Part shown: one piece after another, positions 25,503 to 59,021 of the stretch
Layout of the letters: every line of letters begins with the position of its first letter
How positions within the stretch are numbered: position 1 is the stretch's first letter
Virus record (IMG/VR): IMGVR_UViG_3300027733_000032
DNA: 64,000 nt
Direction: 5' to 3' (one strand)
Source of the DNA: a virus
Program-made: the position numbers and the translations under genes
The notes under the pieces: generated by a model
Databases searched by the model: none
The model's input: the letters and a program-made list of their open reading frames with translations, nothing else
What the model was told of the DNA's origin: nothing

Positions 25503-26348
25503 TTAATTCTCCAATGAGGATAATTTTTCTTTCACAATTTTTATCTGTAAACAAATTTCGTATATGTCAGCAAATTGTTTATTGTGCAAATTTAAAATTC
25601 CTATTCTTGCCAACCATAGTTTGAATTCTACTGGTTCTGGTGGCGCAATCTCCGGTAGCGAGCACGTACCAGTTTTAAAGTATTGTGCAACTTGCATGTC
25701 GGGCAGTTGCATGAGCGACCTTACTGGTTGAACTGAATCTTGTTGGTCAACATGAAGCCCGAGACTGGTCAATATTTCGTGAGCAACTTCTGCCATTGGC
25801 TCACGACTTTCTGCGTAAACGTATGCCCATTGCCATTCAAGCAATAGTTTAAATAGTTCGTGTAGTGATGGCGCCCCAGGATATGGATGAATCATCTGAT
25901 ACTGCTTGATTAGGTGTTCAGAGCCTGGAGTTAGTTCGTTGTAGATAATTGAGGCTCCACCTGGGATGTTGTAAATTACGACATGGCTTACGACTTTATT
26001 CAAGAAATCGGAGTCCATGAGGATATCTTTGAATTCAGTACGACCGTAGAGTTCGTCCATTGGGACGTTCATATGAGTGTCGGTTGATGAGCATGTTGGC
26101 GCCATCCAGTGGTCTGGTTGTTCGGAAATTGGGACACTTTTCCATACTCTGAATCCGTATCTGAATCGTATTGCTGGCGTAATAAATGGACTAAACATTG
26201 AACCAATTTGATTGATGACGTCGTCTTCGGATTCAAATAAATCCAAATCAAAACCAGTGCTAGCAAGTGACTTGTAGAGAGACACTTCAAGTTCATCAAT
26301 TGTTTCTCTAAGTGCTTCAATTTTTATTTGATTTGACAGATTTGCCAT
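25503..26348 (-). CDS. Hypothetical protein with an N-terminal small helical module
   Basis: 281 aa; the N-terminus aligns with 30368, 33558 and 34567 (K..A...L...G.D.D). Confidence 0.7.
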   Translation of the reverse strand: MANLSNQIKIEALRETIDELEVSLYKSLASTGFDLDLFESEDDVINQIGSMFSPFITPAIRFRYGFRVWKSVPISEQPDHWMAPTCSSTDTHMNVPMDELYGRTEFKDILMDSDFLNKVVSHVVIYNIPGGASIIYNELTPGSEHLIKQYQMIHPYPGAPSLHELFKLLLEWQWAYVYAESREPMAEVAHEILTSLGLHVDQQDSVQPVRSLMQLPDMQVAQYFKTGTCSLPEIAPPEPVEFKLWLARIGILNLHNKQFADIYEICLQIKIVKEKLSSLEN

Positions 26349-26572
26349 AGAATACCTCCGAATACATTACATATTATCTTATTATTTGGGTGTGATGGGA
26401 AGATTGCGGTCTCTATTAACTTGGTATTTCGTCATCCAAGACCTTAACGAACCTCTCGTGCGACCAATATTGTTTACTTCGGCCCGTGCGCCACCCGTGA
26501 TGAGGTGGTACGGTAAGGGAATTGGCGGCTTGCGCCCTCAACCGTGAAACACTTTTGGAGTTTTTGAACAAC

Positions 26573-27187
26573 ATGATTTTACACACACAATATTCATATA
26601 ACGAAGAGTTTTCCCAAAAACTTGCTTTTGAATTTACCGCCGTGGGTTCAGACAAATCGTCGTATCATGGGTACGAGGACATATACTCGCACCTTTTATC
26701 CGATATGTCGCCAACGTCATTCCTGGAAATTGGTCTCTTTCTTGGGGAGACTCGTAGTACTGACCTTTTTGCTTGGGAACAGATGTTTCCTGAAGCAAAA
26801 ATTTATGGGGCAGACATAAAGTCTCATCTCCTTTTCAAAAGTGGCAATATTCAAACATTTTTTGTTGACCAGTCACGCCCAGAAACCTTTTTGGATTTGA
26901 AGAACTCAATTGGCGACAAGGTCGACATCATCCTGGATGACGCTTCGCATGTTCTTGATTTGACAATCTCCACTTTTGAGAACATGTTTGATTTTCTTGA
27001 AGATGATGGCATTTACCTCATAGAGGACATTCTTTACGAGGATTACAATATGGACAGTTGGGAACAGCGTTCATCTGAATTAAAAGAATATTTTGACAAA
27101 ACTGGTCTTTCTTACGAGATGTATGCAACATCAAAGGTTCATTCCTGTGTGGATAGTGTTGTTTTAGCGGTATTCAAGGGCAAATGA
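26573..27187 (+). CDS. Class I SAM-dependent (sugar O-)methyltransferase, MycE-like
   Basis: DKSSYHGY..IY, FLEIG, W..FPEAKIYGADI, DQS, IILDDASH, YLIED. ATG at 26573 follows GGAG; the track start at 26522 is TTG. Confidence 0.85.
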   Translation: MILHTQYSYNEEFSQKLAFEFTAVGSDKSSYHGYEDIYSHLLSDMSPTSFLEIGLFLGETRSTDLFAWEQMFPEAKIYGADIKSHLLFKSGNIQTFFVDQSRPETFLDLKNSIGDKVDIILDDASHVLDLTISTFENMFDFLEDDGIYLIEDILYEDYNMDSWEQRSSELKEYFDKTGLSYEMYATSKVHSCVDSVVLAVFKGK

Positions 27188-27639
27188 CTCCTGATAGGAT
27201 ATCTTTCATGACAAAAACTACCGACAGGTTCTGGAGCAAAGTAGATATCGGTTCTCGTGAGGAGTGCTGGCCATGGCGTGCATTTACCCATAAAGGATAT
27301 GGCATATATCGGGATGATGGGAAAAAAGTTAGGGCGCATCGATATTCTTTCTTTATTCACAACGGCTTTTATCCGCCAGTCGTGATGCACGCCTGCGATA
27401 ATCCGCCTTGCGTCAATCCAGCGCACCTACTGGCGGGAACACCGGCTTTGAACACCAGAGACATGATGGCCAAAGGTAGACATGTTGAACCCAACTCCAG
27501 CAAAACACACTGCCCGACGGGTCACGAATACACAGAAACAAACACTTACGTGTATCCATCGGGCGCGCGTAAATGTCGCACCTGTCGCAACGAACAAAGT
27601 CGTATACATCGTGCAAAGAAAGTTAAGGAAAATACTTGA
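27184..27639 (+). CDS. Free-standing HNH homing endonuclease
   Basis: RFWSKV...ECWPW...GYG...AHR...VMHACDNPPCVNPAHL..N; C-terminal HCPTGH..CRTC; overlaps both neighbours. Confidence 0.9.
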   Translation: MTPDRISFMTKTTDRFWSKVDIGSREECWPWRAFTHKGYGIYRDDGKKVRAHRYSFFIHNGFYPPVVMHACDNPPCVNPAHLLAGTPALNTRDMMAKGRHVEPNSSKTHCPTGHEYTETNTYVYPSGARKCRTCRNEQSRIHRAKKVKENT

Positions 27640-28718
27640 GATTCCACATCGTTTCCCTACCACACACGAACACCACCGAAGACTTCACCGCCTGTGCTTA
27701 CACAGAGAAGGTGCGCAAGTTCTGTATCATGATGAAAAATCTCGGACACACCGTATTTCTCTATGGCGGCGAGTTCAATGAAGCACCCTGCGATGAACAC
27801 ATCGTCTGCATTACCGAGGAGCAACGACTAAAGGCCGTTGGTAACAACCACTACTCTGCGGCGTCATTTGACTGGAACCTGCCTCATTGGGTTGAGTTCA
27901 ACGGCAACGTCATCAAGGGCATTCAAGAACGCCTAGAACATAAAGATTTCATCTGCCTCATAACTGGATATGCCTCTAAGCCAATTGCTGATGCTTTTCC
28001 CAACGAACTGAGCGTGGAGTTTGGGATTGGATATGGCGGGTGGTTTGCTAACTACAAGGTGTTTGAGTCCTATGCATGGATGCATGCCTGTTACGGGTCT
28101 AAAGTTACTGACCCTCACACTCTTGACGGCAAATTCTTTGACACCGTTATCCCAAGTTATATCGACGTTGACGACTTCGCCCTACAAGAAGAACCCGACG
28201 ACTACTACCTATACATAGGTCGACTGACGGAGCGTAAGGGTTATCAGGTTGCTGTAGACGTATGCAAGGCACTTGGTAAGCGTTTAGTGATTGCTGGTCA
28301 AGGAACTCCACCTTCTTACGGTGAATATGTGGGCGTAGTTGGGACTGAAGAGCGTTCAAAACTCATGGGTGGGGCAATCGCTACCTTCACTCCAACCATC
28401 TATGTCGAACCTTTTGGCACCGTTGCTATAGAAGCAATGGCATGTGGTTCTCCTGTGATTTCTACCGATTGGGGAGCATTTACGGAGACTGTCATTGATG
28501 GCGTCACTGGATTCAGGTGTCATACTTTGCAAGAATTTATGGATGCTGCGGAGGCGGCAAAACACCTTGACCGCAAGGCAATAAGCCAGTACTCCAAGGA
28601 CCGCTACGGCCTCGATACGGTGGGGCTTATGTATGAGAAGTATTTTACGCGGCTACAAACCCTCTGGGGTAAGGGTTGGTATGAACTCAATAGTAGCCCT
28701 CCAGTTGAAGAAGACTAA
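27636..28718 (+). CDS. GT-B (GT4-like) glycosyltransferase
   Basis: YIGRLTERKG, LVIAG, EPFGTVAIEAMACGSPVISTDWGAFTE. Confidence 0.9.
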   Translation: MRFHIVSLPHTNTTEDFTACAYTEKVRKFCIMMKNLGHTVFLYGGEFNEAPCDEHIVCITEEQRLKAVGNNHYSAASFDWNLPHWVEFNGNVIKGIQERLEHKDFICLITGYASKPIADAFPNELSVEFGIGYGGWFANYKVFESYAWMHACYGSKVTDPHTLDGKFFDTVIPSYIDVDDFALQEEPDDYYLYIGRLTERKGYQVAVDVCKALGKRLVIAGQGTPPSYGEYVGVVGTEERSKLMGGAIATFTPTIYVEPFGTVAIEAMACGSPVISTDWGAFTETVIDGVTGFRCHTLQEFMDAAEAAKHLDRKAISQYSKDRYGLDTVGLMYEKYFTRLQTLWGKGWYELNSSPPVEED

Positions 28719-28768
28719 AAGGAATGACCACCGACGCAAAGTTTTAGGCTTCGGCGCAATGAAGGAAA

Positions 28769-29065
28769 TTATACAAAATGTTTTACAATCGAAGCGATTG
28801 CTAAGACAGTCCAGGCAACGTTGAATAGAATGATGGTCGGCAAAGTTTTCTTAGTAGATGACCAAATCAGCGCCGTACTTGAAATGATAGCAAAAATGTA
28901 AAGCCACCACCACTGCTTGCCCAAAAGTAGGCCAGGAAAAATAATGAGAATCTTTGTTGCAAAACCCCACGCCTCGACGGCATTGGGACGATTCCAATAT
29001 TCCTTCTTGGACATCGTTTTAACAGCATCAACTATCTTTTGACTGAACTGGACAAATTTATTCAT
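28769..29065 (-). CDS. Small multi-TM membrane protein
   Basis: 98 aa with three hydrophobic segments. Confidence 0.65.
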   Translation of the reverse strand: MNKFVQFSQKIVDAVKTMSKKEYWNRPNAVEAWGFATKILIIFPGLLLGKQWWWLYIFAIISSTALIWSSTKKTLPTIILFNVAWTVLAIASIVKHFV

Positions 29066-29685
29066 GTGCCTTTGATTCCATTCTTTTTCTGATACTCATG
29101 TCTAGCACGAGCAACTTCATGTAAGTGGGACGGACCCTTGGTAAAATACCAATGTTCTGGTTCGGCAAAATGAAAGAAAATCATTTGCACTTCATTGTTC
29201 GCTGGGTCAGGGAAACTTTCGCGCCAATGGTATTGGTCCTCACCGTAATAACAAACCGCTTGGTTTGGTTCTGGTAACATCTCTTGTTCTTCAACATAAA
29301 TAGGCCACTGAGTCTTATACGAGAGACATAAGTCCATTGTGTAGGTACAGGCATTGTCGTCGACATGGCTTGGGAGTTGCGCCCTAAAGCCACGATAGGA
29401 AACCCACAAACAGTATGTCGGCTTTAATGTTGGGCTAAATGTAGACCTGGCTTTGTCTAATAAAATTTTGTGGTATTCCCTAAGTGGCGATTCAGTTTTA
29501 TCTGTGCTATTTATACCAAATCTACCTAAAGATGGTTCATAGGAAATAACTTTGGTTTCTTGCAGCAAAGATAAATCTTCATTCAATTTAGTAAACACAG
29601 ATGGCTCAAAAACTTCATCAACAATAAATGCCGGAGGTCTTCTATATAAAGTCCGATTTGTTAGTGGGTCATAGTAGGTGTTCAT
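29062..29685 (-). CDS. 2OG-Fe(II) oxygenase
   Basis: LPSHVD (HxD), YGEDQYHWRE, IFFHF. Confidence 0.75.
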   Translation of the reverse strand: MNTYYDPLTNRTLYRRPPAFIVDEVFEPSVFTKLNEDLSLLQETKVISYEPSLGRFGINSTDKTESPLREYHKILLDKARSTFSPTLKPTYCLWVSYRGFRAQLPSHVDDNACTYTMDLCLSYKTQWPIYVEEQEMLPEPNQAVCYYGEDQYHWRESFPDPANNEVQMIFFHFAEPEHWYFTKGPSHLHEVARARHEYQKKNGIKGT

Positions 29686-30352
29686 TACCTAAAGACCCTC
29701 CATTGTCAATCATGTCAAGAGACTGATTTTCACTATTTTCCAATATGAACGTACTGACAATCCATTTATCATTAGAAATTGGCACGCACCCTTGATGTGG
29801 ATGTGTCCAATATGCTGGAAATAATGCTATAGACCCAGCCTTGGCAGGCACATAGACGTCTTGCTGACGAAAATATGTTTCTCCCCCAGTATCTACGGTA
29901 TTGAGATAAACAACAGCACCAAGAATACGATTCAGGACAACGGTGGGGACCGGTCCACCATCAATATGCTCGCGATAAAACCCCTTACCCTTAATATATC
30001 TTTGCATCCTGAATCCCGTATCACACATTCCTGGCCATTCCCATAACCACTTGAATTGTTCCTGATAATACCCAACAGCAGAAAATATTGCGTTAGAAAC
30101 TTCTAGTTCATAGGAATAGAGTGGTTCTATTGGGACGTTCTTTTCGGCAAGATTTGAGGTAGACCAACTCATATCCATGGTATTTTTAATATTTGGCATA
30201 ACGCCGCTAAGGACTGGTCCTGGAGAGAATAATTTCTCGTAATACTTTGATGATTCTTCAATAATAGAAGAACAAATTTCTTCATTAAGAATATTTTCGG
30301 CAACCATAATTGCAGATGATTTACCTGCTGGCCAGCAAAATTCGATGGTCAT
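29669..30352 (-). CDS. 2OG-Fe(II) oxygenase (prolyl-4-hydroxylase-like)
   Basis: QRY..G.FY.EHID, YLN..GGET.F, FPAYWTHPHQG, KWIVST. Confidence 0.9.
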   Translation of the reverse strand: MTIEFCWPAGKSSAIMVAENILNEEICSSIIEESSKYYEKLFSPGPVLSGVMPNIKNTMDMSWSTSNLAEKNVPIEPLYSYELEVSNAIFSAVGYYQEQFKWLWEWPGMCDTGFRMQRYIKGKGFYREHIDGGPVPTVVLNRILGAVVYLNTVDTGGETYFRQQDVYVPAKAGSIALFPAYWTHPHQGCVPISNDKWIVSTFILENSENQSLDMIDNGGSLGNEHLL

Positions 30353-30367
30353 GACCGACCTTTCGGT

Positions 30368-30607
30368 TTAGTTTTGAGATAAAAACTTTTCGTAGACATT
30401 AAGAATGTCTCGCAGATGCATTTGCGCTGTATCGCTATAGGCTGAATTAGAAAAATCTGGTTGCCAAGAAAAAGAGCCATTAACTAACTCTAGGTCATCT
30501 GGGTCTACTCCTGCAAGTAAGACTGCAGTGAATAACTCTGTTTCTAGACGGCGGCGCGCTGTTTCTCTAGCAACAGTCTTTTGATTTTCTGTAATATTAA
30601 ATTCCAT
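30368..30607 (-). CDS. Small helical protein (paralog family)
   Basis: NITENQK..ARET...LETELF..LLAGVDPD. Confidence 0.7.
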   Translation of the reverse strand: MEFNITENQKTVARETARRRLETELFTAVLLAGVDPDDLELVNGSFSWQPDFSNSAYSDTAQMHLRDILNVYEKFLSQN

Positions 30608-30616
30608 GTTAGAACC

Positions 30617-31432
30617 TCAGTCGTTTCGTCTCATTATTTTATCAACAAATGTTTTCTTTTGTGTGGCTAACTCTGAATCTGCGTCACGTTGCATTTTTTT
30701 ATATTTGCTTTTTTGTTTTTTGGGCATGAAGCCGCCTCCAAATCCTCTGTGTCTGAGGAGATTGTAGGCACTTGAGTTCCCCCATAGGAGTTCTGATTCT
30801 TTAGTTCTCTTAAATGGTATGACGTGCCACATTGGGCGTCCGATTTCAAGTTCAAAAGGCTCGTTAGTTAATACGTTAATAACCATATGTGCATTATGAT
30901 AATAATCTGTATTAACTACTGCTGGGAGCATTGTGTAGTTCGGATTTGGGTTCCAGAGTGGGGGTAGGAATAATGATGACCAACCTGGAGGAGTTTTTAC
31001 TAACCAAGGGTTGATGACTTTAATGTAATTTGATTCTTGAAGTTTCCGTGCTTTTGAAACAGGACATTCACCTGTTTGTGAATACATGAAACTTTCAATA
31101 CCAAAGTCGCCACAATCAGTAGTTAAATCAAATCTGGCATCCCAGTTTTTGCCATTCAAAGATGGGCGAATCATTAATTTTGCCCATAGGGGAATTGTAA
31201 AACCTGTTGCAAGATAGTCGGAGGTACCCGAGCATCTCTTCAAACTTCCATCTGAGCCACTTAATTCTTTCCACCATTCAGGCCAATTCCCATTATTGGC
31301 ATATGGACGACATGAATCATCCATCAAATTAGGGTCAACGCAAGAAAGAAACACTTGATTTTTCTTCAATTTTGGTAAATCATGAAAAATGTCCGGTTTA
31401 ACTATTTGCAGTTTTTCTGAGCGCTTCCGCAT
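30617..31432 (-). CDS. Hypothetical enzyme-like beta protein (DUF6065-like) in the tailoring cluster
   Basis: C.G..DYL..GF.IPLW; K.INPW...TPPGWSSLFLPP; P.VVNTD.Y. Start reassigned to MRKRSEK at 31432. Confidence 0.55.
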   Translation of the reverse strand: MRKRSEKLQIVKPDIFHDLPKLKKNQVFLSCVDPNLMDDSCRPYANNGNWPEWWKELSGSDGSLKRCSGTSDYLATGFTIPLWAKLMIRPSLNGKNWDARFDLTTDCGDFGIESFMYSQTGECPVSKARKLQESNYIKVINPWLVKTPPGWSSLFLPPLWNPNPNYTMLPAVVNTDYYHNAHMVINVLTNEPFELEIGRPMWHVIPFKRTKESELLWGNSSAYNLLRHRGFGGGFMPKKQKSKYKKMQRDADSELATQKKTFVDKIMRRND

Positions 31433-32873
31433 GGTCCACCAATTTCTGGTTAATGAGTTCCGATGATATTTGTGAAATATTCTTTCTAGAAGATTCACGA
31501 GAATTGTATGCTTCCAATTGTATTGACGCAACTTCTTTATTAAGTACTCCCTGCCCTTGCGCTACATGCCACAAATGTGCTGGACCGAATAGTTCAAAAC
31601 CCGTTGATGGGATGTCGTGATGTTCTGGACATCTGGTATTCCATAATTCAAGGAGGTGTTGCAGAAGGGCAGGTTTTTCTGCTTTTTGCTGTTCCGCCCA
31701 CATAGGAGTATCACTCCTATCTGAAACATAATGAAGTGAAATCATACAAAGGATATTTTCCATGATTGAATCCATAACACGATGGTATTCCTTGATTCCG
31801 TATGTTCTTTCACGAGAAAAAGTTGGAAGATATGAGCAGATGAGGCGAGCCTGTTGGATTGTTGTAGAAATTGATGTTGCTTCAAGGGGTTCCACGAATG
31901 AGGCCGCCAACCCGACTGCAACACAATTATTTTTCCATGTAGTACTAAAATATCCTGATTTGAAATTGAGCGTTTTTGCTGGTTCTACTTCAAATCCATG
32001 AATTTCTGATGCTTCCTTAACTGCTTCATCTGCCGAGCAGAAATCTGATGAGAAAACATATCCATTTCCACGACGTTTTTGAGTTGGTATTTCCCACATC
32101 CAACCATTTTTTAACGCTCTTGCGCGTGTGTACGGTTTAATCTGTCCGGATTCTTCCGACTGTGTTGGGAAAGCGATAGCACTGTCGCAAGGAAGATATT
32201 TTCGATATGAAATAAAATCATCTTTAGAAATCTTGCTCAGAATTTCACGATTAAATCCTGTTGCATCAATAAAAAAATCGCCATCAATAAAGTCGTTAGA
32301 TGAATCTATTTTTACATGTTGAATAAAACCTGATTCATCTACACCTATATCTGTTACTTCACCATCAATAAAGTGAATTTTTCTTTCTTTGGCAATACTT
32401 GTTAAATATGTATTTAATTTGAAAGTATCAAAATGATATTGATTCGTTCCTAAATGCGTTTTTTCTCCAGCATCAATGATTTTATTCTCTACTAAACCAC
32501 GCCAAGAAAAAGTACTTGTCAATGGCCAGTCATTCTCTAGAGCGTGGGCATATCCACCCCAGAATGTTCCTGCACTTAAACCAGTTCCACCAACACTATG
32601 GAAATAGTCTGGCGTATGATTTGTCCAATTCTCATATCTGATTCCATATTTGTGTGTAATATCAGCATTTTTAATCATGTCATGAACATCTATGCCAATA
32701 GAATCTTGAAAATGACGCCAATGTTCCGTTGAACCTTCGCCAACTCCAACAATTCCTTTTGCGCTAGAAAAAACCACTGTTACTTCATAACTTTTAAAAT
32801 AATTTTTAATAATTAATGCCGTAACCAAGCCTGCTGTTCCAGCACCAATAATAACTATTTTTTTACGGTTCAT
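31398..32873 (-). CDS. Flavin-dependent tryptophan-halogenase-family protein
   Basis: GAGTAG, GVGEGST, HKYGIRYENW (catalytic Lys), FIDATG, GWMWEIP, FVEPLEATS. Confidence 0.92.
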   Translation of the reverse strand: MNRKKIVIIGAGTAGLVTALIIKNYFKSYEVTVVFSSAKGIVGVGEGSTEHWRHFQDSIGIDVHDMIKNADITHKYGIRYENWTNHTPDYFHSVGGTGLSAGTFWGGYAHALENDWPLTSTFSWRGLVENKIIDAGEKTHLGTNQYHFDTFKLNTYLTSIAKERKIHFIDGEVTDIGVDESGFIQHVKIDSSNDFIDGDFFIDATGFNREILSKISKDDFISYRKYLPCDSAIAFPTQSEESGQIKPYTRARALKNGWMWEIPTQKRRGNGYVFSSDFCSADEAVKEASEIHGFEVEPAKTLNFKSGYFSTTWKNNCVAVGLAASFVEPLEATSISTTIQQARLICSYLPTFSRERTYGIKEYHRVMDSIMENILCMISLHYVSDRSDTPMWAEQQKAEKPALLQHLLELWNTRCPEHHDIPSTGFELFGPAHLWHVAQGQGVLNKEVASIQLEAYNSRESSRKNISQISSELINQKLVDHAEALRKTANS

Positions 32874-33565
32874 TTTTTAACCACAAATGTAAAACCTGTT
32901 GCTACGGGAATATGAAATAGATATTTATCTTCATCTTCTGCCAAACGTGACAAGTATTGAAAGTATGGGTGCTTGTTTTTCATTGAGTAGAGGGAGCCAA
33001 AATCGTTCACAATGTTGAGAATCATTAAAGAATTTGAAGGCAGTTTGTCCCAAACGTTGTCAATGATTGAAAAATCATGACTAACCATTTCAACATCAAT
33101 AAGTGCTATATCATAATCTTCATCAATATTTCCATTGACAAAATCTTCCATAAGCACTATTTTATCTTCACTAATTTTAATATTTTTATATTTTTCCATG
33201 TAATCAACACTCATTGTATTGACATAGTGTACATTTGGAACAATTTCATTAAGAGTAGACCCAAGAATGTAGTTCATTCCATAAAAAATAACTTTTGATG
33301 GATTTTTAATTCTTACAGCAATTTCTACAATAGAACGTGTCAATATTTCGATATCCATAGCAGAACTGGAAGCATCGCTTATTTGGTCTAGCCAATTCAG
33401 TTGAACTGAATAGCCAATTGTAGAACGACCCCTGTCGACACCAGTTGCTATTTCCGATTGCAAGAACTGTGCATTGTTTGTAACAATGGTCGATTTATCA
33501 ATATCGGAAGACATCGTATGTGAAAGTAAATTTGCCATCTGAAAAACACTGTAATTGTCATTCAT
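32870..33565 (-). CDS. Divergent Rossmann/methyltransferase-like protein
   Basis: VIFYG..YDIALID..W..L....LMIL pattern; canonical glycine loop degenerate. Confidence 0.45.
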   Translation of the reverse strand: MNDNYSVFQMANLLSHTMSSDIDKSTIVTNNAQFLQSEIATGVDRGRSTIGYSVQLNWLDQISDASSSAMDIEILTRSIVEIAVRIKNPSKVIFYGMNYILGSTLNEIVPNVHYVNTMSVDYMEKYKNIKISEDKIVLMEDFVNGNIDEDYDIALIDVEMVSHDFSIIDNVWDKLPSNSLMILNIVNDFGSLYSMKNKHPYFQYLSRLAEDEDKYLFHIPVATGFTFVVKK

Positions 33566-33827
33566 TGTCTAGTCTCCATTTTAGAACATAAAAAAGATAC
33601 CAAAATCGTCTTAAGGACATTTGATATCTACGCAATTCTGCATGCTTTTCTGCTGCAGTAGTAGAATTGGGGTCATAGTTTGCTGCGCCAAAAACATTAC
33701 TACACGATTCCATCAAGTCATCTAAAGTCAGACTTTGAATATCTGCCAAGTCAACACCAATTGTTACAGCGATTGCGACTAGTTGTTCTTGAACATAATT
33801 AAAATCATTTTGTAAGTTATAGCCCAT
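33558..33827 (-). CDS. Small helical protein (distant member of the paralog family)
   Basis: EQL..AVTIGVDLAD; probable start MGYNL at 33827. Confidence 0.65.
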   Translation of the reverse strand: MGYNLQNDFNYVQEQLVAIAVTIGVDLADIQSLTLDDLMESCSNVFGAANYDPNSTTAAEKHAELRRYQMSLRRFWYLFYVLKWRLDNE

Positions 33828-33978
33828 TGTTTTTATCCTCAATTACAAAAACTATAGGTTGGTCAAGCATTGCGCAAGAAACAATGCTTTCGTCGTTTGC
33901 CTTATATCTGCCTGTAGTTAAATCAAAATTTGCATCAGTAATTTGTTCAACGTTTGATTCTTGAGGTTCTGGAGTCAT
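33817..33978 (-). CDS. Small acidic peptide (53 aa, not in the ORF track)
   Basis: MTPEPQESNVEQITDANFDLTTGRYKANDESIVSCAMLDQPIVFVIEDKNNGL*; ATGA overlap with the oxygenase stop. Confidence 0.55.
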   Translation of the reverse strand: MTPEPQESNVEQITDANFDLTTGRYKANDESIVSCAMLDQPIVFVIEDKNNGL

Positions 33979-34565
33979 TGAAACCACGTCACTAATGAAT
34001 ATTTGACAGTATTGTCTTTTTCACCTACGGGTTCAGCAATATGCAAATATGGGTAATTTGATGGAAACATGATAACGCTTCCGGCTTTTGGTTGAATATT
34101 CACATTGAAACGAGGGAATACTAAATTCCCACCAGTAAAATTATCGTTTAGGAAAGCAACCAGACTTAGGCTTCGTGCATTGTTCCTGAAATGGTCATGA
34201 TGGGCATGATATTCAGCACCACCACCATACTTCAGCACGCGGTAACCTTCATCCATTTCTAAATCCAACTCAAAAACATGCCTGTAGTCCCAAACGATTG
34301 GGTCAATTTTTTCCCAAATTTTTTGCCATTCAGAAGCAAGCGGCTTAACTCTTTCAATAGCAATTTCATCAGAACCAAGGGGCATTAATTCGCATCCCAT
34401 TGATGTTCTTGTGTTGGAAATTTGACCTTCACCAGTCGCAGATTTTTCCCATCGCACATATCCCCAATCTTGAGAACATTCCTCTTCTAGGAGTTCGATG
34501 AAGTTCCCTGCATCAAAAATATTGTCGTATTGGCAAATACCAACTGCATGTTCTTTGAATTTCAT
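33975..34565 (-). CDS. 2OG-Fe(II) oxygenase (prolyl-4-hydroxylase-like)
   Basis: VLKY.GG.EYHAHHD, FLND.F.GG.L.F, FPSNYPYLHIA, KYSLVTW. Confidence 0.9.
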   Translation of the reverse strand: MKFKEHAVGICQYDNIFDAGNFIELLEEECSQDWGYVRWEKSATGEGQISNTRTSMGCELMPLGSDEIAIERVKPLASEWQKIWEKIDPIVWDYRHVFELDLEMDEGYRVLKYGGGAEYHAHHDHFRNNARSLSLVAFLNDNFTGGNLVFPRFNVNIQPKAGSVIMFPSNYPYLHIAEPVGEKDNTVKYSLVTWFQ

Positions 34566-34566
34566 G

Positions 34567-34815
34567 TTATTCGGCGATTCTTCCGCGGATTTCTTCAATT
34601 TTTTCTAATGCTTCAAGAGTACGAATAATTTGTTCGCGCCAACCAGAGTATTCTTCAGCAATATCTGTCTCTGGATTAAATGTTGTCATATCAACTAAAT
34701 CTGGGTCTAGGCCAGCGGCAACCATACTTCCGAATAATTGTTCCTTGAAACCAACTTCTCGTGTTTCGATTGCTTGTAATTTGCGTTCTGTTGTTAAAGA
34801 GTCAAAAAAACTCAT
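34567..34815 (-). CDS. Small helical protein (paralog family)
   Basis: SLTTERK.QAIET...KEQLF..VAAGLDPD. Confidence 0.7.
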   Translation of the reverse strand: MSFFDSLTTERKLQAIETREVGFKEQLFGSMVAAGLDPDLVDMTTFNPETDIAEEYSGWREQIIRTLEALEKIEEIRGRIAE

Positions 34816-34817
34816 TG

Positions 34818-35264
34818 TCATCTCCTTTGTCCGTTGTGTACCATAACTTCATTCTTGCATATTTCTGTGCCATTGCGCTTCGCTATGACAATATATTTTC
34901 CTGATTTAGGAAATCTATGTTTAATGACAACGCGATGTTCTTCAATAATCTCTGGTGTTATGACACCAATGACACGAACAATATAGTCATCATTATCTAT
35001 TTCTACAAGCGTAAACTCAACTTCTTTACATGAATCAAAATCATCAACAAAGACAAAAATAAAAAGTTCATTAGTTCCTATTTTGGAATTGTAGTCTACA
35101 TATTTTTCAATTGGAATGGAAAGCAATGTTACTTGTGAGTCATCAAAATTCATAGTTTCTGTTCTTGGAGAATGCCCATTTTGTATTGGTAATATCCAGG
35201 AACGAGCAAGTTTTTCCGCATCTCCAAACATTGATTCATCTGGGCAAAAAATAACGCGCTCCAT
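34818..35264 (-). CDS. Hypothetical protein (C-terminal Ig-like strands)
   Basis: 148 aa, coupled to both neighbours. Confidence 0.62.
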   Translation of the reverse strand: MERVIFCPDESMFGDAEKLARSWILPIQNGHSPRTETMNFDDSQVTLLSIPIEKYVDYNSKIGTNELFIFVFVDDFDSCKEVEFTLVEIDNDDYIVRVIGVITPEIIEEHRVVIKHRFPKSGKYIVIAKRNGTEICKNEVMVHNGQRR

Positions 35265-36991
35265 TAGATATCGATTGCTTTTGTGTATGGATAATTACTA
35301 TGGCTCATCTGTGTGTTGGCTGTTCCGACGTTGCGTGCAATGATAATAACACCGCCATCACTTCCAGTCACTCCAGTTCCACCAGCGTTTGCTGTTCCCG
35401 CTGTTCCTGCAGTGCCACCAGCACCACCAGGCCAGTTCGGGTGTGGTGTGGCGGTTGGATTAGATAAAGCATTCGAACCAGTTGCTCCTGCTGCATGGTT
35501 TGCCGCTGGGAATGTGAAGTACCCGGCATTATGGAATGAAGGATGTGGGGTGGCGGTGGAGTTGGAGTTGTAGTGTGGTGCGAATGGCCCAGACGACCAC
35601 GGTGTAGCACTAGCAGGAGTAGTTCCCGCTGGTTGAGTATGATAGCCGGCGTTATGTTGTGTGTTTCCTGCATGATGTCCATGTCCTGCAGTATGGTTTC
35701 CGGCGTGATGTGATGCAGCAGCATGATTGCCGGCGTGATGTCCATGTCCAGAGTTATGATTTCCAGCATGATGAGCAGCCGCGGCGTGATGTGAACCGTG
35801 TCCTGCATTATGGTTTTTGTTTGGGTTTGCAGTGCCATTATGATTACTAAATCCGCGAGGTCCGTTTGCTGGGTGAGGGCCTGAAAGTCCGTGTGCTGCA
35901 GCATGGTGAGCGTTGGGTGTTGCGTTGTGATTTGACCAATAAACGTGTGTATTTGGGTTATGTGCGCTGTGATGGGCGTAGTTTGCTGCGGCGGTGTGTG
36001 ATGCGTTCGGTGTGGCATTGTGGTTTGTGTATGACGTGTGGACATTGGGGTTATGTGCGCCCGTGGCAGCGTTGCTGAATGGGGTGGAACTATATGTCGG
36101 ACCAACGAAAATAGAATCTACGCCATGATTGAAGGTTCCTTGATTATGAGATGCAGCAACCGAAGTTCCTGTGGTATGTCCATATATTGGTGCGCTGCCA
36201 GCAGGATGTGGATGATTTCCTGAAGGATGCCCTCCAGCATTATGGCTCGCAGGGCGCATCGGAGCCGTCGTGCCTGAACTACCAGCAGAACCAGCAGTAG
36301 CAGGGTTCCCTAAAGAGCCTGTAAATCCTCTACTTAAAATTGAGCCAGACCCAGCGACGGTTTTAGCGACAATAACAACTAGTCCACCACCAAGTCCGCC
36401 CGCGCCACCAGTACCTGCAGTGGCCGCATTGCCTGAACCTCCCGAGTTCCCAATACCGCCAGCCTGACCTGCAGTTGCGCCAGGGAAAATGCCCAGAGGA
36501 CCAGCACTGCCAGCGCCACCAGCGCCCGCATTGGTGGCAATCGTTCCAGCACTACCCGCCACTCCAAGTGAACCAGAACCAATTTTCGTTACTGTTCCAG
36601 CCCCAGTAATAAAGAATCCTGTCATTGCATCATCTAAATCATGCAAATCAGTAGAGGTAATTGCACTCGTACTAACTCCCCATGCACTTGTTGGGTTTAA
36701 GGCACTTGGTCGACCAGCAATCGTTCCACTCCCATCAGAAACGTTTGCTGCGGTACCGGTGGGAAATCCTATTGTCCCATTGTTGGTTAAAGTTCCCTGC
36801 ACAAAAACACGGAAACCGTTAGTAAACAGTGTTGCCCCAGAGTTCACCGTCAATGACGAGTAGTACATATCTCTAGTCAGATGCGTGACCGTAGGGCTAG
36901 TGATGGTGACAGCACCATCGACTCCTGTACCAAAAATAGAGTCTCCGCCAGTTTTTTGAACCAATGATTTATTTAGCCGTCTGATTCCCAT
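35264..36991 (-). CDS. Gly-rich tail fibre-like protein with a His/Asn-rich insertion
   Basis: N-terminal FGTGVDG.VT..LTRDMYY..LT..GFRVFV is shared with 36993; about 280 aa insert carrying about 45 His. Confidence 0.8.
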   Translation of the reverse strand: MGIRRLNKSLVQKTGGDSIFGTGVDGAVTITSPTVTHLTRDMYYSSLTVNSGATLFTNGFRVFVQGTLTNNGTIGFPTGTAANVSDGSGTIAGRPSALNPTSAWGVSTSAITSTDLHDLDDAMTGFFITGAGTVTKIGSGSLGVAGSAGTIATNAGAGGAGSAGPLGIFPGATAGQAGGIGNSGGSGNAATAGTGGAGGLGGGLVVIVAKTVAGSGSILSRGFTGSLGNPATAGSAGSSGTTAPMRPASHNAGGHPSGNHPHPAGSAPIYGHTTGTSVAASHNQGTFNHGVDSIFVGPTYSSTPFSNAATGAHNPNVHTSYTNHNATPNASHTAAANYAHHSAHNPNTHVYWSNHNATPNAHHAAAHGLSGPHPANGPRGFSNHNGTANPNKNHNAGHGSHHAAAAHHAGNHNSGHGHHAGNHAAASHHAGNHTAGHGHHAGNTQHNAGYHTQPAGTTPASATPWSSGPFAPHYNSNSTATPHPSFHNAGYFTFPAANHAAGATGSNALSNPTATPHPNWPGGAGGTAGTAGTANAGGTGVTGSDGGVIIIARNVGTANTQMSHSNYPYTKAIDI

Positions 36992-36992
36992 T

Positions 36993-37772
36993 TTACGCTA
37001 CCTGTGAATAAATAGATGTTCCCGCCGTACCACCAGTACCAGCAGTGACATCGGTTGATACACCAGACAGTAAAGTTGCAGCAGATGAAATAATAATAAC
37101 CACCCCACCACCTCCGCCTCCAGCACCAGTAGTTCCAGGCGCTTTGATGGTTGCGGTACCACTAGAAAGGCTGATATATCTTGCAGCGAGAATAACTACT
37201 CCACCGCCTGCCCCAGAAGCACCACCAGCACCACCACGTAGGAATGTTGGCGACGTAGAACTACCAGTAATTGAATATCCGCGAACTGCTTGAAATGGTT
37301 GATAGTAATAATTTGTTCCACCCGTTAGTGCCGTTGGGACTGCAGCGGTCCCAGCACCCACGCCACCCCCACCACCTCCGAGGCTATGTGTAACGCTAGT
37401 GAGTGCGGCTGCGCCTTGCTGAATGGACCCAGCAGTAGTAAAACCTGTTGTGTGACCTATCACAGAATTGTTGCCTAACATCAGAATATTCTGAACGAAA
37501 ATACGATATCCAGCAGGGTTGAGGCGAACGCTGTCCGAAAGTGTGAGATTATAAAAGAATAAATCTCTTGTCGCTGTATAGACGGAAGACGATGGGGCCA
37601 TGCTCAGAATCGTTGTTGTTCCATCTAGGGTTACGGAACCATCTGCACCTGAACCATAAATTTGGTCTGGGGCATCAAGAAAGCCGGTCAAGTTGGCGTT
37701 CGCTTTTGACGTTGTTGATGGTCCAGAGGCGACACTCAGACCACCTCCATTCGTAAAAATGAACTTTCCCAT
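36993..37772 (-). CDS. Gly-rich tail fibre-like protein (paralog of 35264 without the insert)
   Basis: YGSGADGSVT..TRDLFF.NLT..GYRIFV; GGGGGVVII motifs. Confidence 0.75.
   Translation of the reverse strand: MGKFIFTNGGGLSVASGPSTTSKANANLTGFLDAPDQIYGSGADGSVTLDGTTTILSMAPSSSVYTATRDLFFYNLTLSDSVRLNPAGYRIFVQNILMLGNNSVIGHTTGFTTAGSIQQGAAALTSVTHSLGGGGGGVGAGTAAVPTALTGGTNYYYQPFQAVRGYSITGSSTSPTFLRGGAGGASGAGGGVVILAARYISLSSGTATIKAPGTTGAGGGGGGVVIIISSAATLLSGVSTDVTAGTGGTAGTSIYSQVA

Positions 37773-40665: not shown

Positions 40666-40666
<1 letters not shown>
39842..40666 (-). CDS. Glycine-rich domain protein (tail-associated)
   Basis: GYRYHTF.ASG.F, VVGGGGSGG, NTGGGGGG..GGSGVVIVRY. Confidence 0.75.
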
Positions 40667-41841
<1,175 letters not shown>

Positions 41842-41844
41842 TAC

Positions 41845-42095
41845 TCAGTCTCCATTTCTTAATGAGCCGATATGCCACGCTTGCGCTTCAGCGACAAGTT
41901 GCTCAGGGGTAAGTCCGAGAGCGTTAGCACCATTATCTAAAGTCAATACACCTGTGACTACGAGCAAAGTTCCAAGTACACCAACTTGGTCCAATGGTTC
42001 CTGAGGTGGTTCAGGGACTTCGATGTCCTCAATAATATTGTTGTTTATTTTTGTAGGGTCGTATCCGCCTAAACCAAAAGTTACGATACGAGCCA

Positions 42096-42096
<1 letters not shown>
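41845..42096 (-). CDS. Small hypothetical protein (fibre-associated)
   Basis: MARIVTFG...; ATG at 42096 overlaps the upstream TAA. Confidence 0.65.

Positions 42097-45089
<2,993 letters not shown>

Positions 45090-56204: not shown

Positions 56205-56205
<1 letters not shown>
54427..56205 (-). CDS. Tail fibre with C-terminal intramolecular chaperone (Peptidase S74)
   Basis: MAIDFP module; SSRSLKQDI, LRPVTYKW, GFIAEEV..VVP, AIKEL..RV..LE. Confidence 0.9.

Positions 56206-59021
<2,816 letters not shown>

Follow-up and report, generated by a model that had tools for sequence, protein, structure and literature searches.

A candidate fiber-tip tailoring module with a flavin-dependent halogenase and prolyl 4-hydroxylase-like oxygenases in an uncultured freshwater phage

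Locus and fiber-tip paralogs

The window analyzed here is a stretch of 64,000 nucleotides (nt) of the IMG/VR record IMGVR_UViG_3300027733_000032, from an uncultured freshwater phage. Between positions 28769 and 37772, its minus strand contains a chain of genes in which two putative fiber-tip paralogs are followed by a flavin-dependent halogenase, predicted 2-oxoglutarate (2OG)-Fe(II) oxygenases and a protein with a dUTPase fold. Megablast of the region against phage records gave no match. The original prediction, which was based on the letters and their open reading frames (ORFs), had proposed that these enzymes modify the virion, with low-complexity segments of the fibers as substrates. Family searches match the coordinates given there, and these coordinates and most of the labels therefore stand. 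As judged by sequence comparison, this is a genuine and conserved module with enzymes of protein-modifying types; we infer that their substrate is a His-rich loop in the longer tip protein. The fiber genes and the main enzymes, in descending order of coordinates, are:

40666–45074, minus strand: two collagen-like G-X-Thr fiber genes with PHROG tail-fiber and collagen-like matches, upstream in the same orientation; alternative substrates
36993–37772, minus strand: short fiber-tip paralog, 259 residues, Gly-rich, no insert
35264–36991, minus strand: long fiber-tip paralog, 575 residues, with an inserted low-complexity loop; proposed substrate
33975–34565, minus strand: first prolyl 4-hydroxylase (P4H)-like 2OG-Fe(II) oxygenase (PF13640), 196 residues from the ATG at 34565 (ORF 33975–34598)
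31398–32873, minus strand: flavin-dependent enzyme of the tryptophan halogenase family (PF04820), motif-complete
30617–31432, minus strand: dUTPase-fold protein with an invariant Cys, constant partner of the halogenase, 271 residues from M34
29669–30352, minus strand: second P4H-like 2OG-Fe(II) oxygenase (PF13640), 227 residues
29062–29685, minus strand: probable third oxygenase, 207 residues, HxD...H, phrog_2954

By their ORF coordinates, the genes form a minus-strand chain that runs from the collagen-like fiber genes through 36993–37772 and 35264–36991 down to 28769, and its junctions range from a 35-nt overlap at the tightest to a 15-nt gap at the widest. The sole apparent gap (132 nt) is occupied by a 53-residue ORF at 33817–33978 on the same strand, so that no gap exceeds 15 nt. 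The co-orientation and close chaining that had been noticed from the His-rich fiber gene down to 28769 are thus borne out, and the chain is tighter than claimed. The window contains no tRNA genes, and promoter and terminator scans of it returned fewer sites than in shuffled sequence.

The long tip is His-rich, as had been described, with 48 His, 51 Asn, 98 Gly and no Glu among its 575 residues. Its loop (residues ∼245–521, nt 35430–36260) comprises ∼280 uncharged residues, mainly Gly, His, Asn, Ala and Pro. The N-terminal domain of the long tip is homologous to the short tip by profile comparison (hhalign 99.6%, E 1.6e-23), a paralogy missed by composition-corrected BLASTP of the two genes (E 0.15). 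The AlphaFold2 (AF2) model of the short tip (pLDDT 84) matches C-terminal non-collagen domains of collagen-like proteins from giant viruses and uncultured tailed phages in BFVD (E 1e-13 to 1e-6). A Foldseek search of the model against the PDB gave no match, nor did a tblastn search of the tip protein against cultured phages. In a library-wide profile search the tip retrieved 966 representatives, many of which consist of a collagen-like stalk followed by this domain. On the strength of this architecture and the model matches, the two genes are best read as fiber-tip modules, one of them split by a low-complexity loop. The sequences of 65 unique long-tip homologs have diverged, and the composition of the loop has been retained, with mean insert contents of 18.5% Gly, 15.8% His, 11.9% Ala, 8.0% Pro and 4.7% for Asp, Glu, Lys and Arg together.

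Collagen-like tail-fiber genes are located at 40666–41841, 42096–45074 and 56205–59021. Their repeats are almost pure G-X-Thr: in the triplet counts for the fibers, Thr takes the Y position in 159/179, 60/62 and 38/48 cases, and Pro is placed almost exclusively at X.

Enzymes of the chain

The halogenase predicted at 31398–32873 is indeed intact. It matches PF04820 with an E-value of 5.6e-103 (345.7 bits, cut-off 21) over profile positions 1–450 of 458, and contains GAGTAG (GxGxxG) near the N-terminus, GWMWEIP (WxWxIP) and the Glu-bearing FVEPLEATS. The Lys of its HKYGI segment aligns with the Lys of YKLAV in 5hy5, and the Glu likewise aligns to that of solved tryptophan halogenases. By these motifs the enzyme is catalytically complete. 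Its best PDB matches are bacterial tryptophan 5/6-halogenases (∼1e-60). VirX1 (6qgm, 8.5e-36) and other cyanophage halogenases belong to the same family and have the same catalytic motifs, but VirX1 is more distant than the bacterial enzymes, and halogenases in the phage record collection share less than 37% identity with the window enzyme. Tryptophan halogenase genes of phages have been known for about twenty years, and VirX1 is a characterized biocatalyst. We know of no natural substrate for VirX1, nor for the tryptophan halogenases of phages in general.

Three 2OG-Fe(II) oxygenases had been proposed. Two of them match PF13640 above the cut-off, and the third is probable, with no Pfam match. 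The first oxygenase (E 4e-15, 56.9 bits, cut-off 27) has conserved H122, D124 and H175, and its profile matches the P4H of B. anthracis at 5e-13. In the second (E 4e-9, 37.6 bits), H129, H186 and K196 are invariant, the Asp is read in EHIDG, and the corresponding profile match is 2e-14. Both profiles retrieve prolyl 4-hydroxylases of B. anthracis, PBCV-1, Chlamydomonas and human from the PDB, placing the two enzymes, at the level of sequence, closest to protein prolyl hydroxylases, including the collagen type. The protein P4Hs of B. anthracis (3itq, 5hv0) and PBCV-1 (5c5t) are their best profile matches, and the Fe-binding HxD...H and the basic 2OG-binding residue are kept. The window differs from collagen P4H systems in that its collagens have Thr rather than Pro at Y. 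In the candidate at 29062–29685, H107-x-D109...H172 is invariant among 12 homologs, and among named Atlas clusters the nearest one (score 0.91) contains PF13640. This protein has no Pfam match at E≤10, no profile similarity to the second oxygenase and no informative PDB match; it is a probable oxygenase by its motif.

Enzymes of this type might also act on host proteins or other phage proteins, for example on translation or ribosomal proteins as PPHD does on EF-Tu; the His-rich protein would then be an adhesin that binds metal and requires no modification. The PDB matches include Pseudomonas PPHD (4iw3), and the G-P-T collagen stalks upstream offer alternative proline-rich substrates. The best PDB matches, however, are collagen-type P4Hs and not PPHD, and for genes of host takeover neither a location at the end of a structural operon nor a strict linkage to the tip pair would be expected. 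We regard targets of this kind as decidedly unlikely.

The gene at 30617–31432 had been labeled DUF6065-like. Its product has no Pfam match at E≤10, dUTPase included; a distant homolog (L163, 15288–15995) grazes DUF6065 (PF19541) with an E-value of 0.005 (16.8 bits, cut-off 26.6). The AF2 model of the window protein (pLDDT 83.8) has a dUTPase fold, matching dUTPases in Foldseek (E 1e-4) and giving VIA Z-scores of 9–9.7 over 120–130 residues. Translation most likely starts at M34 (31432), judging from the lengths of homologs. C67 and T175-D176 are invariant among homologs, and a conserved T-D-(Y/F)-Y-H aligns with dUTPase motif III; the motif V-like RGFG varies in distant members. Membership among the trimeric dUTPases was considered and rejected, as the likeness consists of the fold, with a motif III-like segment alone conserved and no family match. 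The protein is homologous to gp43 of cyanophage Syn9 (hhalign 97.9%).

Given this fold, a (deoxy)nucleotide could be the ligand of the protein, with bases as the targets of the halogenase and oxygenases in nucleotide or DNA modification. The alignment to motif III would fit such a role, as would the homologs without a halogenase that adjoin ribonucleotide reductase in cyanophage S-RIM4 and haloarchaeal tailed viruses, and one oxygenase has a weak match to Tet_JBP (E 0.004, below cut-off). Nevertheless, the oxygenases group with P4Hs rather than with Tet/JBP or AlkB, the dUTPase family match is missing from the Pfam search, RGFG is variable, and the genes reside in the fiber operon and not among replication genes. 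Action on nucleotides is thus very unlikely. In the haloarchaeal tailed viruses, for example Halorubrum sodomense tailed virus 4 (L160, 6953–7834), the homolog is situated between adhesin/tail-fiber genes and ribonucleotide reductase, with no halogenase.

Conservation across related loci and proposed function

Related loci were gathered in two sets, 78 via the halogenase and, independently, 80 via the short tip protein. Wherever the contig reaches, both sets show, in this order, the gene p122, the short tip, the His-rich long tip, an oxygenase, the halogenase and the dUTPase-fold protein, and a 98-residue membrane protein usually closes this neighborhood. The short tip immediately precedes its His-rich paralog in 49/49 halogenase-bearing loci. 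A core of halogenase, dUTPase-fold protein and P4H-like oxygenase adjoins the His-rich tip in every related locus that extends far enough, and this adjacency is kept despite permutation of the genes (L019, L127–L131, L136) or inversion of the block (L111–L114). In two loci (L040 and L042; IMGVR_UViG_3300042291_001557 and 3300042545_001591), two oxygenase-halogenase modules lie ∼10 kb apart with a tip pair between them, which suggests that the whole unit of fiber and enzymes was duplicated.

The original prediction had asked whether enzyme content co-varies with the insert sequence. More distant split-tip proteins also served as queries, and all 305 metagenomic loci were then scanned with profiles of the halogenase, the dUTPase-fold protein, the tip, the two oxygenase types and the third candidate. 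This gave a contrast set of 79 non-redundant loci that have a tip pair and 6 kb or more of downstream sequence. The halogenase is present in 49 of the 79 loci, 48 of which have a long tip with more than 3% His; it is absent from the other 30, all of which have a long tip with 3% His or less (30/30). This contrast (48/49 against 0/30 loci above 3% His) is the pattern expected if the loop is tailored, but as one evolutionary event it is suggestive rather than statistical. Single-tip loci, and four outgroup loci with tandem Gly-rich paralogs, contain none of these enzymes.

The halogenase-free loci form a sister clade in which the gene order is reversed, the long tip preceding the short one. This clade has one or two P4H-like oxygenases alongside two or three dUTPase-fold genes, and its loop is Tyr/Pro/Asn-rich with no His. 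Three of its sublineages have PF11397 glycosyltransferases, in whose vicinity FkbM methyltransferases and a sugar epimerase are encoded. In L163, L167 and L195, PF11397 genes are located next to P4H-like genes, behind the Tyr/Pro/Asn-rich tip loop, and by its gene content this clade is a candidate for a phage hydroxyproline-glycosylation system. PF11397 is presumably the family of Gnt1. In the Skp1 pathway, Gnt1 adds N-acetylglucosamine to hydroxyproline after the action of PhyA (PMC6939170). The sister clade similarly pairs a hydroxylase with a PF11397 glycosyltransferase, whereas the window carries a family 4 glycosyltransferase (GT4).

Within-clade correlations uncorrected for phylogeny reach nominal significance, but with 2–5 independent pairs they are too thinly based to count as evidence. 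In these, low Pro accompanies loss of the first oxygenase, high Asn goes with the second oxygenase and high His with the third.

The enzyme set itself is not new. Iyer, Abhiman, de Souza and Aravind (2010; PMC2938197) described in Syn9 a neighborhood of tandem 2OG dioxygenases and tryptophan halogenases that also includes a dUTPase-fold protein bearing a conserved cysteine. For other bacterial operons, the same authors suggested that the dioxygenases act on collagen-like and tail-collar proteins. The window reproduces this neighborhood, with a halogenase, several distinct 2OG dioxygenases and the dUTPase-fold Cys protein in one co-oriented array. The Syn9 array, including the gp43 homolog, starts directly after tail-fiber genes and the Gly-rich gp36, gp38 and gp39, which we count in favor of tailoring of the fiber. 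It differs in having 2 halogenases and about 10 oxygenases (1 and 2–3 in the window) and a JmjC/MINA-type member, which was not detected in the window. Furthermore, the strict tie of the window cassette to a pair of tip paralogs with a His-rich loop is not described in PMC2938197. In the literature searched, we found no paper tying phage halogenases to fiber proteins and no report of a halogenated virion protein; the linkage to fiber-tip paralogs with such a loop was thus not found in the literature, whereas the set of enzymes has been known since 2010.

Syn9 gp36 and gp38 were considered as tip homologs and rejected, since no homology is detectable; the likeness, a Gly-rich sequence in which a His patch precedes the last strand, is one of composition. 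The gp38 gene (L162, 10344–11144), labeled tail fiber assembly, encodes a protein of 22% Gly with a His-rich patch just before the last hydrophobic strand, a position reminiscent of that of the window loop. Several Syn9 dioxygenases carry the labels 'DNA endonuclease V', 'minor coat protein' or 'ferrochelatase', which look like misannotations because the window oxygenases match the same PHROGs.

The Syn9 cluster was read by Iyer et al. (PMC2938197) as making halogenated secondary metabolites, and the window enzymes could similarly make or alter a metabolite or free amino acid of the infected cell by halogenation and hydroxylation, the fiber-side location being a permissive insertion site for accessory genes. 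This reading would agree with the free-tryptophan halogenases as nearest solved structures, with the plasticity of the region (sporadic methyltransferase and GT4 genes, an HNH insertion, variable small genes) and with the classification of these families by PHROGs as auxiliary metabolic genes. Yet family searches of the cluster found no peptide synthetase, carrier protein, transporter or precursor-supply gene, and the oxygenases are nearest to protein prolyl hydroxylases. The PF11397 glycosyltransferases of the sister clade are of a polypeptide type, the linkage to the tip pair outlasts rearrangements, and single-tip loci are free of the enzymes. Production of a small molecule is, in our view, unlikely.

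We favor a fiber-tip tailoring module whose enzymes would modify the loop of the long tip, and estimate the probability of this reading, which draws on sequence comparisons, at roughly 0.5. The virion modification originally proposed gains from the linkage of the core to the His-rich tip, from the similarity of the oxygenases to protein P4Hs and from the PF11397 genes of the sister clade; its methyltransferase and GT4 components fall outside the core. Virus-modified virion proteins are known, namely glycosylated capsid and tail proteins of mycobacteriophages and the hydroxylated, glycosylated collagen of mimivirus. In these cases, too, viral enzyme genes lie beside structural genes and the virus decorates its own surface proteins. 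They differ from the window in that the modification, glycosylation or lysyl hydroxylation, was shown experimentally, whereas the window is known from its genes.

Several observations weigh against modification of the loop. The whole case rests on gene context, and in cyanophage S-H38 the halogenase is found among small genes, ∼6.5 kb from a fiber gene. The substrates established for flavin halogenases so far are Trp, Tyr, pyrrole or phenol, and the loop contains few residues of the two amino acids (4 Trp, 12 Tyr). Among solved structures the window halogenase most resembles free-tryptophan halogenases, the published interpretation of the Syn9 cluster is metabolic, and homologs of the dUTPase-fold protein occur beside ribonucleotide reductase with no halogenase. 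The canonical site of collagen P4Hs is Pro at the Y position of G-X-Y. Such prolines are absent from the G-X-T collagens, which counts against the part of the earlier substrate claim that included them. The correlation between halogenase and His also has exceptions, as the halogenase-free clade includes tips with 10–13 His, and the halogenase-bearing L019, L141, L132 and L133 have only 11–20 His in a short patch. A single change suffices to explain the distribution of the halogenase when it is mapped onto a quick maximum-likelihood tree built from the short tip. Each test of an enzyme against composition has 1 to 5 independent pairs; no pair goes in the wrong direction, and with so few pairs no such test can be significant.

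If the fiber tip is the target, the late structural operon would encode two tip paralogs, the second with its ∼280-residue uncharged loop, and behind the latter, translationally coupled, two or three P4H-type hydroxylases, the halogenase, its dUTPase-fold partner and small proteins. The enzymes would act on the loop, possibly also on the collagen-like stalks, during assembly of the virion. Hydroxylation would affect prolines, perhaps also Asn or His, and the halogenase, using reduced flavin from the host, would modify the electron-rich side chains of Trp, Tyr and possibly His. A methylated sugar would be added by the GT4 and the sugar O-methyltransferase in loci that have them. The sequences show what the genes are, that the tips are paralogs, and how the conserved linkage is distributed; in this scheme we infer the substrate and its chemistry, when the modification takes place and what the dUTPase-fold protein does. 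In its composition the loop resembles the Gly/His-rich proteins of polychaete jaws, which are halogenated and bind metal. A tentative and rather doubtful extension is that halogens and hydroxyls are put on the Gly/His-rich loop to harden or tune the receptor-binding tip.

If true, this would be the first halogenated protein of a virus particle, and would provide a natural substrate class for viral flavin halogenases. The module names a specific, expressible and neighboring candidate substrate for these enzymes, and the sister clade, with His-free loops, no halogenase and enzymes of hydroxyproline-glycosylation type, is a natural comparison set. Modification of the loop would extend phage chemistry on receptor-binding proteins beyond glycosylation and bear on host range, particle stability and protein-halogenating biocatalysts. 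An unmodified loop would strengthen the published secondary-metabolite interpretation.

Accessory genes and flanking cassette

The remaining genes of the chain and its flank, several of which were absent from the original prediction (the HNH gene, the 53-residue ORF, the small helical ORFs, p148 and the membrane protein), are:

34818–35264, minus strand: p148, 148 residues, 1-nt overlap with the long-tip gene
34567–34821, minus strand: small helical protein, 84 residues, paralog of 30368–30607, kept in the closest subclade
33817–33978, minus strand: conserved 53-residue ORF, uncalled, its start overlapping the oxygenase stop
33558–33827, minus strand: small protein, 89 residues from the ATG, kept in the closest subclade
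32870–33565, minus strand: 231-residue protein, possibly with a degenerate methyltransferase fold; Atlas leads to Methyltransf_24, 0.88–0.89
30368–30607, minus strand: small helical protein, 79 residues, F46/W48/P50 invariant
28769–29065, minus strand: membrane protein, 98 residues, last in the operon, with a three-helix look and no family match
27636–28718, plus strand: GT4 glycosyltransferase (PF00534, E 2e-18; phrog_3408, E 7e-86)
27184–27639, plus strand: HNH homing-type endonuclease between methyltransferase and GT4 (HNH_3 and zf-His_Me_endon, both weak)
26522–27187, plus strand: TylF/MycE-like sugar O-methyltransferase (PDB matches; phrog_21658)
25503–26348, minus strand: 281-residue protein outside the conserved module, no family match

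The two small helical proteins are paralogs (hhalign 92%), and each is encoded directly upstream of one P4H-like oxygenase gene. They may serve as adaptors or chaperones for the enzymes. The 53-residue ORF is conserved at the protein level in eight relatives (tblastn, 94% down to 34% identity), and the 89-residue protein has weak similarity (12%) to the other small proteins. p148, which has no Pfam or PHROG match, is found in part of the lineage, close to the oxygenase.

The four small conserved ORFs (53, 79, 84 and 89 residues) lie among the enzyme genes. Two are paralogous, and some have conserved aromatics, such as those of F46/W48/P50 in the 79-residue protein. They could be the tailored precursors of a pathway like those of ribosomally synthesized and post-translationally modified peptides, released as a bioactive peptide. 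However, family searches of the cluster ORFs revealed none of the hallmarks of such pathways, that is, a precursor together with recognition or leader-processing machinery, and found no leader protease, recognition element, cyclase or exporter. The small ORFs also look folded, helical and conserved over their full length, and, unlike the universal halogenase and oxygenase, they are confined to the closest subclade. A precursor role is highly improbable.

The 231-residue protein had been taken for a second methyltransferase. This label is weakened by Atlas leads below 0.9 and by the absence of a conserved GxGxG, a Pfam match or an informative PDB match; its sequence is possibly that of a degenerate methyltransferase fold. 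The 98-residue membrane protein is 65–94% identical across loci in which the halogenase is 45–91% identical, and it also adjoins a distant halogenase (L058). A transporter or lysis-related role is possible.

The methyltransferase, HNH and GT4 genes lie on the strand opposite to the halogenase chain, an arrangement that had not been noted. The GT4 assignment was correct (Glycos_transf_1, 66.8 bits, cut-off 26.4). The predicted O-methyltransferase resembles the sugar O-methyltransferases TylF and MycE in PDB matches confined to residues 48–170 (8ia9, 9.8e-9; 3ssm, 3.4e-7); its score to Pfam Methyltransf_31 (21.8 bits) is under the cut-off of 27. A minority of relatives have both genes, on the halogenase strand and with no intervening HNH gene; in L010, L011, L108 and L109 the HNH gene is absent and the two directly abut. 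The window cassette is inverted compared to relatives such as L010 and L108, and its HNH gene looks like a homing-endonuclease insertion. Next to this cassette, the 281-residue protein has no homolog in the 78 loci gathered via the halogenase, and its N-terminus bears a weak likeness (21%) to the small helical proteins.

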